A stretch of 6,407 nucleotides of DNA, from the IMG/VR virus record IMGVR_UViG_648276668_000001, positions 1-6,407 of that record; one strand, written 5' to 3'. The DNA comes from a virus. Lineage: Duplodnaviria > Heunggongvirae > Uroviricota > Caudoviricetes. Positions 1-6,407 of the stretch are shown here, piece after piece (within the stretch, counting starts at the first letter, position 1; the number at the start of each line of letters is the position of its first letter). The notes under the pieces are model-generated. The model had not been told where the DNA came from. It saw only the letters and a program-made list of their open reading frames with translations, and did not search any database. Position numbers and translations under genes: made by a program.

Positions 1-2
1 TT

Positions 3-2108
3 GGCTGTACCAGCCGGGGGCAGGCACACCGCGCCGGGCTGTGGCTGATTAAAACGGAACTGCTGGAGACGCAGACCGTGGATTTCAGCGTGGGTGCTGA
101 AGGGCTTCGCCATGTACCGGGCGATGTCATTGAAATCTGCGATGATGACTATGCCGGTATCAGCACCGGTGGTCGCGTGCTGGCGGTGAACAGCCAGACC
201 CGGACGCTGACGCTCGACCGTGAAATCACGCTGCCATCCTCCGGCACCACGCTGATAAGCCTGGTTGACGGTGAGGGTAATCCGGTCAGCGTGGAGGTCC
301 AGTCCGTCACCGACGGCGTGAAGGTGAAAGTGAGCCGTGTTCCTGACGGCGTTGCTGAATACAGCGTGTGGGGGCTGAAGTTGCCGACGTTGCGCCAGCG
401 CCTGTTCCGCTGCGTGAGTATCCGTGAGAACGACGACGGCACGTATGCCATCACTGCCGTGCAGCATGTACCGGAGAAAGAGGCCATCGTGGATAACGGG
501 GCGCACTTTGACGGCGACCAGAGCGGCACGGTGAATGGTGTCACGCCGCCAGCGGTGCAGCACCTGACTGCCGAAGTCACCGCAGACAGCGGGGAATATC
601 AGGTACTGGCCCGCTGGGACACGCCGAAGGTGGTGAAGGGCGTGAGCTTCCTGCTTCGCCTGACCGTGGCAGCGGACGACGGCAGTGAGCGGCTGGTCAG
701 CACGGCCCGGACGACGGAAACCACATACCGCTTCACGCAACTGGCGCTGGGGCGTTACACGCTGACAGTCCGGGCGGTAAATGCGTGGGGGCAGCAGGGC
801 GATCCGGCATCGGTATCGTTCCGGATTGCGGCACCGGCAGCGCCTGTCACTATTGAACTGATACCAGGGTATTTTCAGATAACAGCGGTCCCGAAACTGG
901 CTGTATATGACCCGACGGTGCAGTTTGAGTTCTGGTTCTCGGAAAAGCGGATTACCGATATCAGGCAGGTTGAAACCAGCGCGCGTTATCTTGGTACGGC
1001 GCTGTACTGGATAGCCGCCAGTAGCAATATTAAGCCGGGTTATGATTATTACTTTTATATCCGCAGCGTGAACACTGTTGGTAAATCGGCATTTGTGGAG
1101 GCCGTCGGTCGGGCGAGCGATGATGCGGAAGGTTATCTGAATTTTTATAAAGGGTTGATCAATAAAACGCATCTCGGCAAGGAACTGCTGGAAAACTTTG
1201 AGCTGACGGAAGATAACGCCAGCAAACTGGAGGAGTTTTCGAAAGAGTGGAAGGACGCTAACGATAAATGGAATGCCATGTGGGGCGTCAAAATTGAGCA
1301 GACCAAAGACGGCAAACATTATGTCGCGGGTATTGGCCTCAGCATGGAGGATACGGAGGAAGGCAAACTGAGCCAGTTCCTGGTTGCCGCTAACCGTATC
1401 GCGTTTATTGACCCGGCAAACGGGAATGAAACGCCGATGTTTGTGGCGCAGGGCAACCAGATATTCATGAACGAAGTGTTCCTGAAGTATCTGACGGCTC
1501 CCACCATTACCAGCGGCGGTAATCCTCCGGCATTTTCCCTGACACCGGACGGGCGGCTGACGGCGAGAAATGCTGATATCAGCGGTAACGTGAATGCGAA
1601 CTCCGGGACGCTCAATAATGTCACGGTAAATGAAAACTGTACGATTAAGGGCATGCTGGAGGCGAACCAGGTCAGAGGTGACTTCGTTAAAACTGTATCC
1701 AAATCATTCCCGAAAAAGGCTGGTACGTGGGGTAACACGGAAACACCAAACGGGACGGTTACAGTCACCATTTACGATGATCATAACTTTGACCGCCAAA
1801 TCATTATTCCGCCCATTATTTTTAACGGTGTGGCGTATGACGATCCGGGGAGCGGTAATAACCCGGGAGGTACGCGATACACGGGTTATGGTTTTGAAGT
1901 TCGCAAAAATGGCGTATTAATCGCATCCAGAGAAACTAAAGGAGCCATTCCCGGTAGTTACAGTGCGGTTATTGATATGCCGAGTGGTGGTGGTAACGTC
2001 ACTCTGGAGTTTAAGATTTTCCAGAAAGGCAATCAGGGCGCAGGTAACATCACAGACTGTACGGTGATTGTGACCAAAAAAGCTGCTTCCGGTATCAGTA
2101 TCCGTTGA
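3..2108 (+). CDS. J: Host-specificity / tail-tip protein (lambda J-like), C-terminal ~700 codons; 5'-partial, gene continues upstream of the window
   Basis: The reading frame is open from position 3 with no stop until TGA at 2106-2108. The provided ORF (78..2108) starts at an internal GTG, but translation of bases 3-77 gives [26 protein letters not shown], continuous with it. From memory, the [51 protein letters not shown] stretch matches lambda J. Two fibronectin-III-like segments are present (e.g. ...[32 protein letters not shown]...), followed by a distal C-terminal domain that in J-type proteins carries receptor specificity. Confidence 0.9.
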
Positions 2109-2129
2109 AATATTTATAACCCCAATACG

Positions 2130-2155
2130 GGCGCCAGAAATGGCGCCTTTTTTAT
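2130..2155 (+). terminator. Rho-independent terminator between J and stf
   Basis: Perfect 7-bp GC-rich stem GGCGCCA (2130-2136) / TGGCGCC (2141-2147) with a GAAA tetraloop, immediately followed by TTTTTTATTT (2148-2157). It lies 22 nt after the J stop. Confidence 0.6.
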
Positions 2156-2168
2156 TTGTGGAGTGAGT

Positions 2169-4541
2169 ATGGCAGTACAGATTTCAGGTGTGCTGAAAGA
2201 TGGTGCGGGAAAACCAATACAGAACTGCACTATTCAACTGAAGGCAAAGCGTAACAGCACCACGGTACTGGTGAACACGGTGGCCTCTGAAAATCCGGAT
2301 GAAGCCGGGCGTTACAGCATGGATGTTGAGTATGGCCAGTACAGCGTTATCCTGCTGGTTGAAGGTTTTCCGCCTTCACATGCCGGAACCATTACCGTCT
2401 ATGAAGGTTCCAGACCAGGTACGCTGAATGATTTTCTCGGTGCCATGACGGAAGATGATGTCATGCCGGAGGCATTGCGTCGTTTTGAGGCAATGGTGGA
2501 AGAAGCGGCACGCAACGCTGAAGCCGCCTTTCAGAGCGCAGCGGCGGCAAAGAAATCCGAAGCTGCTGCGGCATCATCGAAGAACGCGGCGAAAAGCTCA
2601 GAAACGAATGCAGCTAACAGCGCACAGGCGGCAGCGGCCTCACAGACTGCATCGGCAAACTCCGCGACAGCAGCCCAAAAATCAGAAGCCAACGCGAAAA
2701 ATAGCGAAACAGCCGCAAAGACGAGTGAAACCAACGCGAAGTCCAGCCAGACGGCAGCGAAAACCAGCGAAACGAATGCCAAAGTCAGTGAAACTGCAGC
2801 GAAAAACAGCCAGGCTGCAGCAGCTGAAAGCGAGAGCGCAGCAGCCGGTTCTGCGACTTCAGCAGCTGGATCAGCAACTGCTGCGGCTAACAGCCAGAAA
2901 GCTGCGAAGGCGAGCGAAACTAACGCAAAGTCCAGCCAGACGGCAGCGAAGACCAGCGAAACGAATGCCAAAGCCAGCGAAACTGCGGCGAAAAGCAGTC
3001 AGGATGCAGCAGCCGAAAGCGAGAGTGCTGCAGCTGGTTCTGCAAGCGCGGCGGCTGCTTCTGCCACTGCATCAGCTAACAGTCAAAAAGCAGCAAAAAC
3101 CAGTGAAACCAACGCAAAGGTGAGCGAAACAGCGGCTGCGAACTCAGCGAAAGCATCGGCAGCAAGCCAGACGGCAGCTAAAGCAAGCGAAGATGCAGCC
3201 AGAGAGTACGCAAGCCAGGCTGCGGAGCCGTATAAATATGTCTTACAGCCGCTGCCTGATGTGTGGATACCATTTAACGATTCGCTGGATATGATTACGG
3301 GCTTTTCGCCGTCATATAAAAAGATTGTTATTGGTGATGATGAAATAACGATGCCTGGCGACAAGGTTGTTAAGTTTAAACGCGCATCGAAAGCAACCTA
3401 TATTAATAAATCTGGTGTGCTGACAGAGGCTGCCATTGACGAGCCACGGTTTGAACGTGATGGCCTGCTTATTGAGGGGCAAAGAACGAACTACATGCTC
3501 AATTCGGAAAGCCCTGCCAGTTGGGGGCGATCGTCAAATATGGATGTGCCCGAAACCGGGACGGATAGTTTTGGTTTTACCTATGGAAAGTTTGTCTGTA
3601 ACGATTCTCTGATTGGGCAAACCTCAGCCATTAATATGGCATCAATTGCTGCAACAAAGTCAGTTGATGTCTCAGGCGATAATAAACACGTGACAACCTC
3701 ATGTCGTTTTAAAACAGAACTGCAGGTAAGGTTGCGTATCCGGTTTGATAAATATGACGGTAGCGCAACAACTTTTCTTGGTGATGCGTATATTGATACA
3801 CAAACGCTTGAAATTAATATGACAGGCGGTGCTGCCTCAAGGATTACAGCGAGAGTCAGAAAGGACGAAGCTACCGGATGGATTTTTGCAGAGGCAACAA
3901 TTCAGGCAATTGATGGGGAGTTAAAAATAGGTTCTCAGATACAGTATTCTCCTAAGCAGGGCGGGGCAACCGTATCTGGTGACTATATTTATCTGGCCAC
4001 CCCACAAGTAGAAAATGGGCCTTGTGTATCATCTTTTATTATATCAGGAACGACGGCGGCGACCCGCGCAAGCGATATAGTTACAGTTCCAATTAAGAAT
4101 AATCTTTATAATCTTCCTTTTACGGTTCTTTGTGAGGTACATAAGAACTGGTATAAAACGCCAAATGCAGCGCCGCGTGTTTTTGACACCGGCGGTCATC
4201 AAACCGGAGCGGCTATTATTCTTGGCTTCGGTTCTTCAGCAGATTACGACGGATTTCCTTATTGCGATATTGGAGGAGCTAACAGACGGGTAAACGAAAA
4301 CGCATCGCTTGAAAAAATGGTTATGGGGATGCGTGTAAAGTCAGATCAGTCTACGTGCTCAGCAAGTAACGGGCGTATATCCAGCGAAACAAAAACCACA
4401 TGGTCCTGTATTCAGAACACCGCAATTATCCGTATTGGAGGCCAGACTACAGCCGGGTTACGTCATTTATTTGGTCATGTCAGGAATTTCAGAATATGGC
4501 ACAAGGCATTGACTGATGCTCAGGTGGGGGAGTCAATCTAA
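2169..4541 (+). CDS. stf: Side tail fibre protein (Stf-like), mosaic: lambda-Stf-like N-terminus, repetitive Ala-rich shaft, distal domain ending in a LamG/concanavalin-like motif
   Basis: The provided ORF starts at GTG 2163, but ATG 2169 is preferred: GGAG at 2160-2163 sits 5 nt upstream, and the product then begins MAVQISGVLKDGAGKPIQNCTIQLKAKRNSTTVLVNTVASENPDEAGRYSMDVEYGQYSVILLVEGFPPSHAGTITVYEGS, which I recognise from memory as the lambda Stf N-terminus. Residues ~120-350 are A/S/T/K/E/N-rich tandem repeats. The distal ~440 residues are different in character and lower in GC, ending ...IIRIGGQTTAGLRHLFGHVRNFRIWHKALTDAQV, which resembles the C-terminal strand motif of LamG_3 / concanavalin-like lectin domains. 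Stop TAA at 4539-4541. Confidence 0.85.
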   Translation: MAVQISGVLKDGAGKPIQNCTIQLKAKRNSTTVLVNTVASENPDEAGRYSMDVEYGQYSVILLVEGFPPSHAGTITVYEGSRPGTLNDFLGAMTEDDVMPEALRRFEAMVEEAARNAEAAFQSAAAAKKSEAAAASSKNAAKSSETNAANSAQAAAASQTASANSATAAQKSEANAKNSETAAKTSETNAKSSQTAAKTSETNAKVSETAAKNSQAAAAESESAAAGSATSAAGSATAAANSQKAAKASETNAKSSQTAAKTSETNAKASETAAKSSQDAAAESESAAAGSASAAAASATASANSQKAAKTSETNAKVSETAAANSAKASAASQTAAKASEDAAREYASQAAEPYKYVLQPLPDVWIPFNDSLDMITGFSPSYKKIVIGDDEITMPGDKVVKFKRASKATYINKSGVLTEAAIDEPRFERDGLLIEGQRTNYMLNSESPASWGRSSNMDVPETGTDSFGFTYGKFVCNDSLIGQTSAINMASIAATKSVDVSGDNKHVTTSCRFKTELQVRLRIRFDKYDGSATTFLGDAYIDTQTLEINMTGGAASRITARVRKDEATGWIFAEATIQAIDGELKIGSQIQYSPKQGGATVSGDYIYLATPQVENGPCVSSFIISGTTAATRASDIVTVPIKNNLYNLPFTVLCEVHKNWYKTPNAAPRVFDTGGHQTGAAIILGFGSSADYDGFPYCDIGGANRRVNENASLEKMVMGMRVKSDQSTCSASNGRISSETKTTWSCIQNTAIIRIGGQTTAGLRHLFGHVRNFRIWHKALTDAQVGESI
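2724..3135 (+). repeat. In-frame tandem repeat inside stf: two ~189-bp (63-aa) copies plus a partial third, each built from ~42-bp (14-aa) sub-repeats
   Basis: Direct comparison: 2733-2921 (aacgcgaagtccagccagacggcagcgaaaaccagcgaaacgaatgccaaagtcagtgaaactgcagcg...) recurs at 2922-3110 (aacgcaaagtccagccagacggcagcgaagaccagcgaaacgaatgccaaagccagcgaaactgcggcg...) with few substitutions. At protein level TNAKSSQTAAKTSETNAKVSETAAKNSQAAAAESESAAAGSA... is followed by TNAKSSQTAAKTSETNAKASETAAKSSQDAAAESESAAAGSA.... Boundaries are approximate. Confidence 0.8.
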
Positions 4542-4822
4542 TGAAAGATTTAACACTCAAATTTGAAGACAGGGCCGACTTTTCGGCCTTTATGGAGAGT
4601 ATTGGCTATTATGATGACGAGTCGATGCAGGATGATATTCTTATCGACGTGATAGGTAACGCGTACAAAGAAACCGGAGAACTGACTGAAGATGGCGAAC
4701 CGGTATGTGTTAAGGAAGACGGATATTTTGTAAACGTGCGCATCATTAATGATTCGCAAATATCGTCATTATTCGATGAGTACGTGGTTGCTGTTGAGCA
4801 TCAACTTCGTGGCTGGATGTGA
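4541..4822 (+). CDS. Hypothetical 93-aa highly acidic protein, translationally coupled to stf; function unknown (candidate fibre chaperone/adaptor or DNA-mimic-like anti-defence protein)
   Basis: The ATG at 4541-4543 overlaps the stf stop (TAATG). A GGGGGAG Shine-Dalgarno-like stretch (4526-4532) sits 8 nt upstream. The product has 22 Asp+Glu against 7 Lys+Arg by my count (net charge about -15). I recognise no family motif. Confidence 0.6.
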   Translation: MKDLTLKFEDRADFSAFMESIGYYDDESMQDDILIDVIGNAYKETGELTEDGEPVCVKEDGYFVNVRIINDSQISSLFDEYVVAVEHQLRGWM

Positions 4823-4831
4823 GGAAGAAAA

Positions 4832-5872
4832 ATGGCTACATCGACAGTAATTCCTGATGACATCAAAACGCTAAAATCCGACGTTAGCAAATTAAAAAAC
4901 GATCAAGGAAGCTACGCAACAAAATTATATGTAGACAGCAAAGATGAAATCGTTGGTGACTGGTCTGCTTCATGGTATCAGCAGGTATTGCCAACTAGCG
5001 GAGCTATATTTGGGAGAAAACTCCGCTCAACTCACAGGACGGCAGGTGTTGAGGATGCGTATTGCGAACTATACCTCAAAAAATGGATAGACAGTCCAGG
5101 TAACGCAATGGCGCGCCTTAACCTGAACGATAACGGGACAAACATTTGCTGGGACTTTACCAACCTTTATGGCGGTACGATGATTTTTCCCGGTGACAGC
5201 GGATACCTCAAAATGGGTAACTGCCTTATGTCATACAGCAAGCGTGGAAGTAACGCGCTTATTAAATTTGATTACACCGACACATTACAGATCAAATATG
5301 CCAATCATGGGTCAACCATGACATTAAACACACAGGGAACCGCTTATGCTGGTGTTACTGCTCAATTGTGGGGCAACTCCAGCCGTCCTGTTGTTTATGA
5401 AGTCGGTGTTGATGGTGGCGCTTATATGTTCTATGCGCAGAAAAATACCGATAACACCTATATGTTAAGCGTTAATGGTGCATGTCATGCCACAGCATTT
5501 AACCAGCATTCCGACCGGGATCTGAAAGACAACATTCAGGTGATCGATAATGCAACCGACCGCATCCGTAAAATGAACGGCTATACATACACGCTTAAAG
5601 AAAACGGTATGCCCTATGCTGGTGTCATTGCACAGGAAGCTCTGGAAGCAATCCCAGAAGTTGTAGGTTCCGCAATGAAATATCAGGACGGTGCAAGCGG
5701 ATCGGAAGGTGAAGAAGGTGAACGTTATTACACAGTAGATTATTCTGGTGTTACTGGCTTGCTTGTTCAGGTAGCCAGAGAGTCAGACGACAGAATAACA
5801 GCACTGGAAGAAGAAAATGCAGAATTAAAACAAAGATTATCTGCAATTGAGGCGACGCTTGCGTCTAAATAA
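4832..5872 (+). CDS. Short tail-fibre/tailspike-like protein with a C-terminal intramolecular chaperone (peptidase S74-type) autoproteolytic domain
   Basis: GAGGAAG lies 5 nt upstream of ATG 4832. The C-terminal ~120 residues, HSDRDLKDNIQVIDNATDRIRKMNGYTYTLKENGMPYAGVIAQEALEAIPEVV...YYTVDYSGVTGLLVQVARESDDRITALEEENAELKQRLSAIEATL, carry the hallmarks of the self-cleaving chaperone domain seen in endosialidase tailspikes and T5 L-shaped fibre: SD..LK.NI at the predicted cleavage site (Ser227, codon 5510-5512), GVIAQE...PEVV, and a terminal coiled-coil-like segment. The N-terminal ~226 residues would be the mature product. GC is low. Confidence 0.8.
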   Translation: MATSTVIPDDIKTLKSDVSKLKNDQGSYATKLYVDSKDEIVGDWSASWYQQVLPTSGAIFGRKLRSTHRTAGVEDAYCELYLKKWIDSPGNAMARLNLNDNGTNICWDFTNLYGGTMIFPGDSGYLKMGNCLMSYSKRGSNALIKFDYTDTLQIKYANHGSTMTLNTQGTAYAGVTAQLWGNSSRPVVYEVGVDGGAYMFYAQKNTDNTYMLSVNGACHATAFNQHSDRDLKDNIQVIDNATDRIRKMNGYTYTLKENGMPYAGVIAQEALEAIPEVVGSAMKYQDGASGSEGEEGERYYTVDYSGVTGLLVQVARESDDRITALEEENAELKQRLSAIEATLASK

Positions 5873-5878
5873 TATTAA

Positions 5879-5898
5879 GGGGCCGAGCGCCCCGTTTT
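5879..5898 (+). terminator. Probable intrinsic terminator after the S74-domain gene
   Basis: GGGGC (5879-5883) / GCCCC (5889-5893) stem with a 5-nt loop, followed by GTTTTATT. The stem is short, so this is a weak-to-moderate call. Confidence 0.45.
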
Positions 5899-5914
5899 AT
5901 TGGGTAGGATGAAA

Positions 5915-6208
5915 ATGGATATAACACCTTTCCTTCATGCACTTTGTGCTGTGGCTGCGCAGGTACTGGTTGGTCTTTTTACCGGAAACTGGGCTTACGG
6001 GGCGATAGCCGGTTGTACGTTCTTCATTGCTCGTGAACATACCCAGGCAGAATATCGCTGGATTGAAATGTTCGGGCATGGCAAGCGTATGAATATGCCG
6101 TGGTGGGGTGGTTTTGATCCGCGCGTGTGGGATGTGGCAAGCCTGATGGATTTTTCTGTGCCGGTGGTGGCGTGTCTGCTGGTCTGGCTGTTGGTTAATC
6201 GTGGGTGA
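5915..6208 (+). CDS. Small hypothetical integral membrane protein (~98 aa, three predicted transmembrane helices)
   Basis: The provided ORF (5900..6208) starts at TTG. ATG 5915 is preferred because AGGA at 5906-5909 sits 5 nt upstream; ATG 5909 is an alternative. Three hydrophobic segments: ITPFLHALCAVAAQVLVGLFTG, WAYGAIAGCTFFIA and VASLMDFSVPVVACLLVWLLV. No lipobox and no recognisable catalytic motif. Stop TGA at 6206-6208. Confidence 0.55.
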   Translation: MDITPFLHALCAVAAQVLVGLFTGNWAYGAIAGCTFFIAREHTQAEYRWIEMFGHGKRMNMPWWGGFDPRVWDVASLMDFSVPVVACLLVWLLVNRG

Positions 6209-6218
6209 AAAAAGGTGA

Positions 6219-6347
6219 GCTGTATATGCAACGGAGGAAGAAACCTCGCTGCTGGAAGCCTGGAAAAAGTATCGGGTGTTGCTGAACCGTGTTGATACAT
6301 CAACTGCACCTGATATTGAGTGGCCTACGAACCCTGTCAGGGAGTAA
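6219..6347 (+). pseudogene. tfa: Remnant of a tail-fibre assembly gene (tfa): conserved C-terminal ~40 codons only, no start codon
   Basis: The frame opens directly after an in-frame TGA (6216-6218) and reads [42 protein letters not shown], ending at TAA 6345-6347. From memory, [30 protein letters not shown] is the conserved C-terminal motif of lambda-type Tfa proteins. There is no ATG/GTG/TTG in frame and no N-terminal ~150 codons. It is absent from the ORF track because it is short and start-less. Confidence 0.7.
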
Positions 6348-6362
6348 TCATTGGGGATTATG

Positions 6363-6396
6363 CCGCAGAAACGTTGTATGCAATAACGTTCTGCGG
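6363..6396. repeat. Imperfect inverted repeat / hairpin (12 bp stem with one bulge, 9-nt loop) just downstream of the tfa remnant
   Basis: CCGCAGAAACGTT (6363-6375), loop GTATGCAAT, then AACGTTCTGCGG (6385-6396). No T-run follows on either strand, so it is not a classical intrinsic terminator. It may be a protein-binding site or part of an element continuing beyond the window. Confidence 0.4.
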
Positions 6397-6407
6397 TTGG
6401 CTGATGC

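Follow-up and report, generated by a model that had tools for sequence, protein, structure and literature searches.

We analyzed a 6,407-nucleotide (nt) stretch of DNA, hereafter the window, that comprises positions 1 to 6,407 of the IMG/VR virus record IMGVR_UViG_648276668_000001 (Caudoviricetes) and is the tail end of a lambdoid Escherichia coli prophage. Our subject is its gene for a 346-amino-acid (aa) fiber-like protein that ends in a Peptidase_S74 chaperone domain. This protein is probably the distal, exchangeable subunit (tip) of a two-part side tail fiber, the proximal part being the 792-aa Stf-like protein encoded upstream. The genes for the Stf-like fiber, an acidic 93-aa protein, and the 346-aa protein form, in this order, a tightly coupled operon. 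An earlier note on this DNA had listed a second receptor-binding tip docking on Stf as one of several options, and it is now the best supported of them, given the homology of the cassette to gp22-gp23-gp24 of the T5-like phage IrisVonRoten and a shared docking peptide. We infer that the 346-aa protein is present in the virion, trimerizes, is cleaved, and docks. The protein would thus represent, in lambdoid phages, a fiber design that is common in E. coli and has been put forward before for T5-like (and phiEco32-like) phages, so its novelty is modest.

The N-terminus carries most of the argument. The earlier note had seen no attachment domain, and the phage_tail_N virion anchor of Pfam is indeed found on the neighboring 792-aa protein and not on the 346-aa protein. 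Residues 1–15, however, follow the pattern M-[AV]-x-x-T-x-I-P-x-D-I-x-x-L-K, in which M1, T5, I7, P8, D10, I11, L14, and K15 are invariant in ten third-position genes with unrelated bodies. This putative docking peptide was found in lambdoid, T5-like, Nonagvirus, Drexlerviridae, and Dhillonvirus phages, at the head of proteins of 98, 224–234, 330, 346, and 574 aa. Its carriers include the 346-aa type of the window, the 227–234-aa type of other E. coli prophages, HMD-P4, KarlBarth gp30, swan01 gp04 and the PeterMerian third gene (224–231 aa), and IrisVonRoten gp24 (574 aa). Long one-piece fibers do not have it. Such conservation, specific to genes 3′ of the proximal-fiber/93-aa pair in five lineages, refutes the view that an attachment element is missing.

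IMG/VR was scanned with a degenerate DNA pattern of the docking peptide, blind to context, which gave at least 118 matches. A 93-aa-type gene lay within 330 nt upstream of the peptide in 117 of the 118 matches listed, and the lone exception had just 60 nt of upstream DNA. The ~92-aa gene that precedes peptide genes itself follows a lectin-ended proximal fiber. Among the matches listed, the peptide occurred only on genes directly downstream of the proximal-fiber/93-aa pair, whatever the body or lineage. Conversely, all loci with the window's 93-aa allele and readable downstream DNA carried a peptide gene 10 nt past its stop codon. A profile search of a 5.8-billion-protein collection with the peptide returned 44 short gene fragments and no new architectures. 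Because the peptide-bearing lineages have different tail tips, we infer that the conserved partner of the peptide would have to be the proximal-fiber C-terminal module, the 93-aa protein, or both.

The wider distribution indicates that the 346-aa gene belongs to a mobile three-gene cassette. In the Nonagvirus phages JenP1 and ESCO3 and the T5-like Salmonella phage HMD-P4, a large fiber gene is followed by an overlapping ~92-aa gene and, 10 nt on, by a third gene; the 10-nt gap is constant across all related loci. The large fibers of the window and of these three phages differ in their anchors and rods and become alignable from QPLPDVWIPFNDSLD, over the last ~430 residues. Their small and third proteins are homologous too.

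The cassette shares with gp22-gp23-gp24 of IrisVonRoten (Bas32, Tequintavirus) its gene order and coupling, including the 10-nt gap, a homologous module and small protein, and a third protein that starts with the docking peptide. The first overlap is 4 nt in IrisVonRoten and 1 nt (TAATG) in the window. Identity is 52% for the proximal C-terminal module (gp22) and 39% for the small protein (gp23), whereas the 346-aa protein resembles gp24 only in the N-terminal 17 residues (59%) and the S74 chaperone, with no sequence similarity elsewhere. The virion anchors differ (lambda-type phage_tail_N in the window, T5 pb1/LtfC type in IrisVonRoten), as do the distal bodies expected after cleavage, which have 226 aa in the window and ~440 aa in gp24, the latter with a Gp12-like receptor-binding domain (RBD) 1 and a T5-like RBD2. 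AlphaFold-Multimer places gp24, described as “T-shaped” and carrying an intramolecular chaperone, on the proximal gp22, from whose C-terminus galectin-like domains protrude (Humolli et al. 2025, PMC11990801). Among the T5-like BASEL phages, none but IrisVonRoten infects K-12 in which the O16 antigen has been restored, and gp24 RBD1 clusters with the RBDs of O16-dependent phages (PMC11990801). These O16 data fit a virion protein that binds receptors. Michniewski et al. (2019) called the third gene of the T5-like phage mar004NP2 an ltfB orthologue.

With a homologous T5-like cassette already described (PMC11990801), the arrangement is not unprecedented. The earlier remark that it is not a standard lambda arrangement is correct for lambda proper, but the region encoding the 93-aa and 346-aa proteins (≥80% coverage) is present in 522 of 5426 complete E. 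coli genomes (~10%), and the pair occurs in four isolated lambdoid phages. These phages (Tritos, HannyBb, PhiR63_1, and 2G7b) are 96–97% identical to the whole window, and the 346-aa gene is intact in them. A prophage that adjoins sitABCD in E. coli T-HYM1 matches positions 4541–5900 with 100% identity. Papers on lambda retargeting and on E. coli HS phages do not treat the cassette.

The chaperone domain that the earlier note had placed from Ser227 onward was confirmed by Pfam: PF13884 (Peptidase_S74) matches residues 227–278 with E = 4.7e-14 and 52.8 bits (cut-off 22). The S-D-x-x-x-K motif is present as S227-DRDL-K232 (Ser227 at nt 5510), and across 71 aligned relatives D228 and K232 never vary and S227 hardly does. 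The AlphaFold2 monomer model has a mean predicted local distance difference test score (pLDDT) of 72.6, with ~90 across most of residues 227–346, where it shows a mixed alpha/beta body and a long C-terminal helix, matching solved chaperone domains. The chaperones of the K1F endosialidase and of the GA-1/phi29 appendages act in cis. The S74 domain of T5 pb1 likewise folds the part of its own chain that lies directly upstream of it; cleavage takes place at Thr1263|Ser1264, where Lys1269 activates the serine, and the receptor site stays masked by the chaperone until the latter departs (PMC4690869). The spacing of Ser227 and Lys232 equals that of Ser1264 and Lys1269. Cleavage is accordingly predicted at His226|Ser227, into products of 24.9 and 13.2 kDa, which supports the mature product of ~226 residues that had been proposed earlier.

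The part between docking peptide and chaperone has the features of a short fiber. Stalk residues I11, L14, V18, and L21 are spaced 3-4-3, and AlphaFold2 models a helix at residues 12–20, with low confidence in the monomer. Relatives lengthen the stalk with TLKSDVS-type heptads, making its length variable in the family. Residues 41–110 are the most variable part of the body, and residues 84–346 are 44–61% identical to the C-termini of many fibers of 500–1400 aa. One of these long fibers (P0062) is a one-piece lambdoid Stf with phage_tail_N that shares tip and chaperone with the 346-aa protein, indicating that one and the same tip serves both as part of an anchored chain and as a polypeptide of its own. 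The gene is under purifying selection, with a ratio of nonsynonymous to synonymous substitution rates (dN/dS) of 0.09–0.37. Among prophage alleles the chaperone can be nearly identical (dS 0.025) where residues 41–226 are strongly diverged (dS 0.8–1.5), which suggests that the body has been swapped between alleles, a mosaic pattern typical of receptor-binding proteins.

Tips seen so far in the third position comprise S74 types of 224–574 aa that are predicted to be self-cleaving, a Tfa-dependent type, and a Phage_tail_C_2 type. The Tfa-dependent type is encoded at locus L260 (6858–8271, − strand of the locus), where a 330-aa protein that starts with the docking peptide has Gp34_trimer, gp37_trimer, and Gp53-like_C domains but no S74 and is followed by its own Caudo_TAP assembly chaperone. 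The presence of the peptide on a Tfa-dependent fiber body indicates that the slot holds true fibers. A smaller allele of 227–234 aa occupies the same slot in E. coli prophages (L037 6292–6996 and many IMG/VR loci in the range L057–L089); here the docking peptide leads into a longer coiled coil and a tiny tip, the S74 domain starts at residue 116, and the mature part would be only ~115 residues. Truncated third-position alleles of 90–194 aa that keep the docking peptide, derived from the 346-aa or the 234-aa gene, were seen at L164, L171, L182, L239, and L254; frameshifts or nonsense mutations are the presumed cause, as would fit decaying cryptic prophages. At L007 4770–5649 (KarlBarth gp30/gp31) and L148 2352–3090 (JLBYU19), the third-position gene is annotated as two overlapping open reading frames (ORFs), of which the first has the docking peptide and the second the tip (Phage_tail_C_2 or S74). 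The split could reflect a frameshift, a sequencing error, or programmed frameshifting.

On the other side of the proposed joint, residues 3–133 of the Stf-like protein are a lambda-type virion anchor (Pfam phage_tail_N, E = 1.6e-66), and its N-terminus matches the tail fiber N-terminus of PDB 9e7m (E = 1.8e-49). An Ala-rich repeat rod (~110–355) is followed by the C-terminal module (~362–792), which is conserved in Nonagvirus and T5-like fibers that have different N-termini. Within this module, NCBIfam GTA_spike_fiber (NF048003) matches residues 436–636 (E = 2.4e-13), the head spike fiber of the Rhodobacter capsulatus gene transfer agent (GTA; PDB 6tb9) is similar with E = 4.4e-7, and Laminin_G_3 gives a weak match at the LamG-like end. 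The module is a candidate socket and a possible first glycan-binding domain. Residues 362–792, being GTA-related, could represent a glycan-binding domain common to phage tails and GTA heads. The proximal C-terminal module was found in 218 phage records and the 93-aa protein in 181. Together, module and small protein form a pair with a wider range: lambdoids, Drexlerviridae, Dhillonvirus, Nonagvirus, T5-like phages, and rV5-like myoviruses.

The 93-aa protein (10.7 kDa, isoelectric point 4.05; phrog_1361, function unknown) is conserved across lineages and always paired with the proximal-fiber C-terminal module. Profile searches of Pfam, NCBIfam, and PDB returned no relatives, and its AlphaFold2 model is poor (pLDDT 61 with close homologs only, 35–43 in other models). 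It is a candidate adaptor (connector) or assembly factor. When one genome per species was scanned, the 93-aa gene turned up in Escherichia only (E. ruysiae and Escherichia sp.) and, with 90% identity, on one contig of a Collinsella metagenome-assembled genome (MAG), which we suspect to be a mis-binned Escherichia phage contig. A Candidatus Poribacteria MAG gave a weak match (39% identity over query residues 26–77, E = 5e-5), and the scan yielded no clear sign of wider taxonomic spread. In ~47 related IMG/VR loci, a membrane-protein gene directly follows the 93-aa gene.

Taken together, these observations suggest the following course of assembly. Three chains of the 346-aa protein would associate through the C-terminal chaperone, which would fold the interdigitated tip. 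A correctly formed trimer would position Ser227 and Lys232, and the His226|Ser227 bond would then be cut. Departure of the 13-kDa chaperone would unmask the receptor-binding tip, as in T5 pb1. The mature trimer, of ~25-kDa chains, would dock by its N-terminal peptides onto the Stf-like C-terminal module and/or the 93-aa protein. The result would be a second, swappable surface-glycan specificity beside the lectin-like domains of the proximal fiber.

Several observations weigh against a docked distal tip. The AlphaFold2 monomer model has low confidence at residues 1–45 and 120–165, so that the docking region itself is weakly modeled. Most of the 118 listed peptide loci are related E. coli prophages, and the number of independent lineages is nearer six to eight. 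Phage 21, ev203, and ev243 have the proximal fiber and the 93-aa protein without the third gene, which indicates that the proximal fiber is complete alone and that the mini-fiber is an optional, dispensable add-on. Mass spectrometry of virions detected a proximal-fiber homolog (MAR004NP2_00160), which speaks for the partner being in virions, and no third protein, although with 5–8 proteins found per phage the latter result is uninformative (Michniewski et al. 2019). Finally, the records of HMD-P4 and PeterMerian annotate short homologs as “putative lateral tail fiber chaperone.” Since phage 21 lacks the third gene, we also considered the divergent ~130-residue end of its proximal fiber as a socket marker; this idea was dropped because ev243, whose stretch is of the common form, lacks a third gene too.

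The chaperone annotations agree with an alternative in which the 346-aa protein acts in trans, its N-terminal peptide targeting it to the proximal fiber, where it would aid trimerization or folding of the C-terminal module without being kept in the virion. The S74 domain makes up about half of the protein in the 224–234-aa types, and the Stf of the window has neither a chaperone domain of its own nor an intact Tfa, of which only the remnant is left. The S74 domain of T5 pb1, however, folds its own upstream segment, and residues 84–226 are a bona fide fiber tip that stands at the C-termini of long fibers, is under purifying selection, and is swapped between alleles. At L260, moreover, the docking peptide is carried by a fiber that needs its own Tfa, and phage 21 and ev243 make the proximal fiber without any 346-aa gene. 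We regard a trans-acting chaperone as improbable.

It is also unlikely that the 346-aa protein is an independent short fiber bound straight to the tail tip, through J or other baseplate proteins, bypassing the Stf-like fiber and the 93-aa protein. Short fibers that bind baseplates directly occur in other phages, the T-shaped fiber of ManiWeber has its own baseplate anchor (PMC11990801), and docking on the Stf-like fiber or the 93-aa protein is deduced from comparative genomics. Yet the peptide is conserved across five lineages whose tail tips differ and whose sole shared neighbors are the proximal C-terminal module and the 93-aa protein, and a stretch of fifteen residues is too short to make up a baseplate-anchor domain.

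Recombination might instead have left the 3′ end of a longer fiber gene as a non-functional remnant, as the alignment of residues 84–346 with long-fiber C-termini, the nearby tfa remnant that shows the locus to be rearranged, and the truncated alleles of some prophages would allow. This is very improbable, given that the gene has its own ATG and a strong Shine-Dalgarno sequence (4 nt upstream of the ATG at 4832, or 6 nt counted from its GAGGA core) at the fixed 10-nt gene spacing, that the length of 346 aa is constant in hundreds of genomes and in viable phages, that the dN/dS values are low, and that the N-terminal peptide is specific and not found on long fibers. The further options raised by the earlier note, that the protein is a depolymerase, is secreted, or serves as a decoy, are suggested by small size and by the S74 domains of endosialidase tailspikes but are the least credible of all, since Pfam, PHROGs, and a fold search revealed no enzymatic domain and the N-terminus, being hydrophilic (grand average of hydropathy −0.51) and acidic, is not signal-peptide-like.

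An exchangeable distal tip also has parallels, and differences, in characterized systems. For the branched, L-shaped LtfA/LtfB fibers of phages DT57C and DT571/2 there is genetic support for a second, S74-bearing fiber carried by the first (PMC4728585; PMC10713586). Like the proposed tip, LtfB has its own S74 chaperone, is borne via the first fiber, and adds a second O-antigen specificity. Its docking N-terminus appears to be a different one, however: LtfB docks by a 45-residue phiEco32 gp15-like N-terminus on a gp14-like region halfway along LtfA. In DT57C no 92-aa gene separates ltfA and ltfB, and LtfA ends in its own chaperone. In a tblastn search with the N-terminus of IrisVonRoten gp24 (not LtfB) as the query, DT57C matched residues 27–69 only, inside ltfA, and not the peptide-containing residues 1–26. 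T5 pb1 (PDB 4uw7/4uw8; PMC4690869) is a single polypeptide of 1396 aa with its own direct attachment to the tail, whereas the tip of the window is a separate 346-aa polypeptide. Lambda Stf shares its N-terminal anchor with the proximal fiber of the window, which keeps a tfa 3′ remnant; lambda, in contrast, has one fiber chain plus a separate Tfa and no lectin-ended module, 93-aa protein, or second fiber gene. The Caudo_TAP profile of Pfam matched neither the 346-aa nor the 93-aa protein. The tfa remnant suggests that the cassette took the place of an older stf-tfa pair of the lambda type. In the long tail fiber of T4 (gp34-gp35-gp36-gp37), proximal and distal trimers are joined via small connector proteins, to which the 93-aa protein, as a possible joint, would be functionally analogous; no sequence relationship of the 93-aa protein to T4 gp35 or gp36 was found.

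What remains most interesting is this short, lineage-spanning docking peptide with its obligatory neighbor. Tentatively, and with some doubt, the 93-aa protein and the 15-residue peptide might form a portable plug-and-socket joint, in which the small protein would be a structural connector, like the T4 knee proteins, and not a chaperone, and by which any trimeric tip could be bolted onto a lectin-ended proximal fiber in at least five siphovirus lineages. The 346-aa protein would in that case be close to the minimal natural cargo, and lambda-based particles could be retargeted by means of the joint. Independently of the joint, reading the 346-aa protein as a tip would turn the “tail fiber domain-containing protein” and the hypothetical protein annotated in about one-tenth of complete E. 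coli genomes into parts of a three-part receptor-binding device with an exchangeable tip. It would help to predict the host range of lambdoid prophages and would explain why these fibers lack Tfa, and the very short peptide could serve to graft new tips onto lambda-derived delivery particles.

Features of the window are listed in Table 1. The hairpin GGGGCCGAGCGCCCC would terminate the stf operon.

Table 1. Features of the 6,407-nt window and of the 346-aa protein encoded in it
Feature	Position	Strand	Remarks
Tip protein J, C-terminal 676 aa	78–2108		
Terminator-like hairpin, first	2129–2148		
Stf-like proximal side tail fiber, 792 aa	2163..4541	+	
C-terminal module of the proximal fiber, starts QPLPDVWIPFNDSLD	3246..4538	+	GTA head-spike-fiber-like domain and LamG-like end
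Acidic 93-aa protein gene	4541..4822	+	Start overlaps the stf stop (TAATG)
Shine-Dalgarno sequence GAGGAAG	4821..4827	+	Read from sequence; overlaps the TGA stop of the 93-aa gene
346-aa distal mini-fiber gene (probable)	4832..5872	+	phrog_4563, match over full length
Putative N-terminal docking peptide, residues 1–15 (MATSTVIPDDIKTLK)	4832..4876	+	
Short heptad (coiled-coil-like) stalk, then YATKxYVD collar, residues ~11–40	4862..4951	+	
Fiber body and tip, residues 41–226	4952..5509	+	Residues 84–226 homologous to C-terminal tips of long one-piece fibers
Peptidase_S74 intramolecular chaperone, residues 227–346	5510..5869	+	Predicted cut His226|Ser227; Lys232 at nt 5525–5527; C-terminal helix 304–344
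Terminator-like hairpin GGGGCCGAGCGCCCC, then T-run	5879..5901	+	Begins 7 nt past the stop of the 346-aa gene; hairpin at 5879–5893
Small membrane-protein gene, 97 aa	5915–6208	+	phrog_1443 (function unknown)
tfa 3′ remnant, 40 codons	6228–6347	+	Annotated as incomplete tfa in the identical E. coli record

The 97-aa product of the small membrane-protein gene had no match in Pfam or NCBIfam; the phage 21 record annotates it as a putative membrane protein with two transmembrane domains, and in phage 21, ev203, and ev243 its gene directly follows the 93-aa gene. The G+C content is 0.61–0.63 in positions 1–1000, inside J, and drops to ~0.44–0.46 in the fiber cassette (3250–5750); because of this drop, a mosaic junction is indicated within J at ~750–1000. 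Positions ~2450–3250 encode the Ala/Ser/Thr-rich SETNAK-type repeats of the Stf rod, where the AT skew is extreme (up to 0.61) and long spurious ORFs arise in other frames and on the opposite strand (e.g., 2455–3123 on the + strand and 2531–2971 on the − strand). Directly 3′ of the tail-fiber region, the E. coli chromosome carries the iron/manganese transporter genes sitABCD, which also lie inside the genome records of phages 21 and Lambda_ev203 (L002 11020–14469; L006 5177–8626; L145 3677–6273) and appear to be phage-borne cargo.

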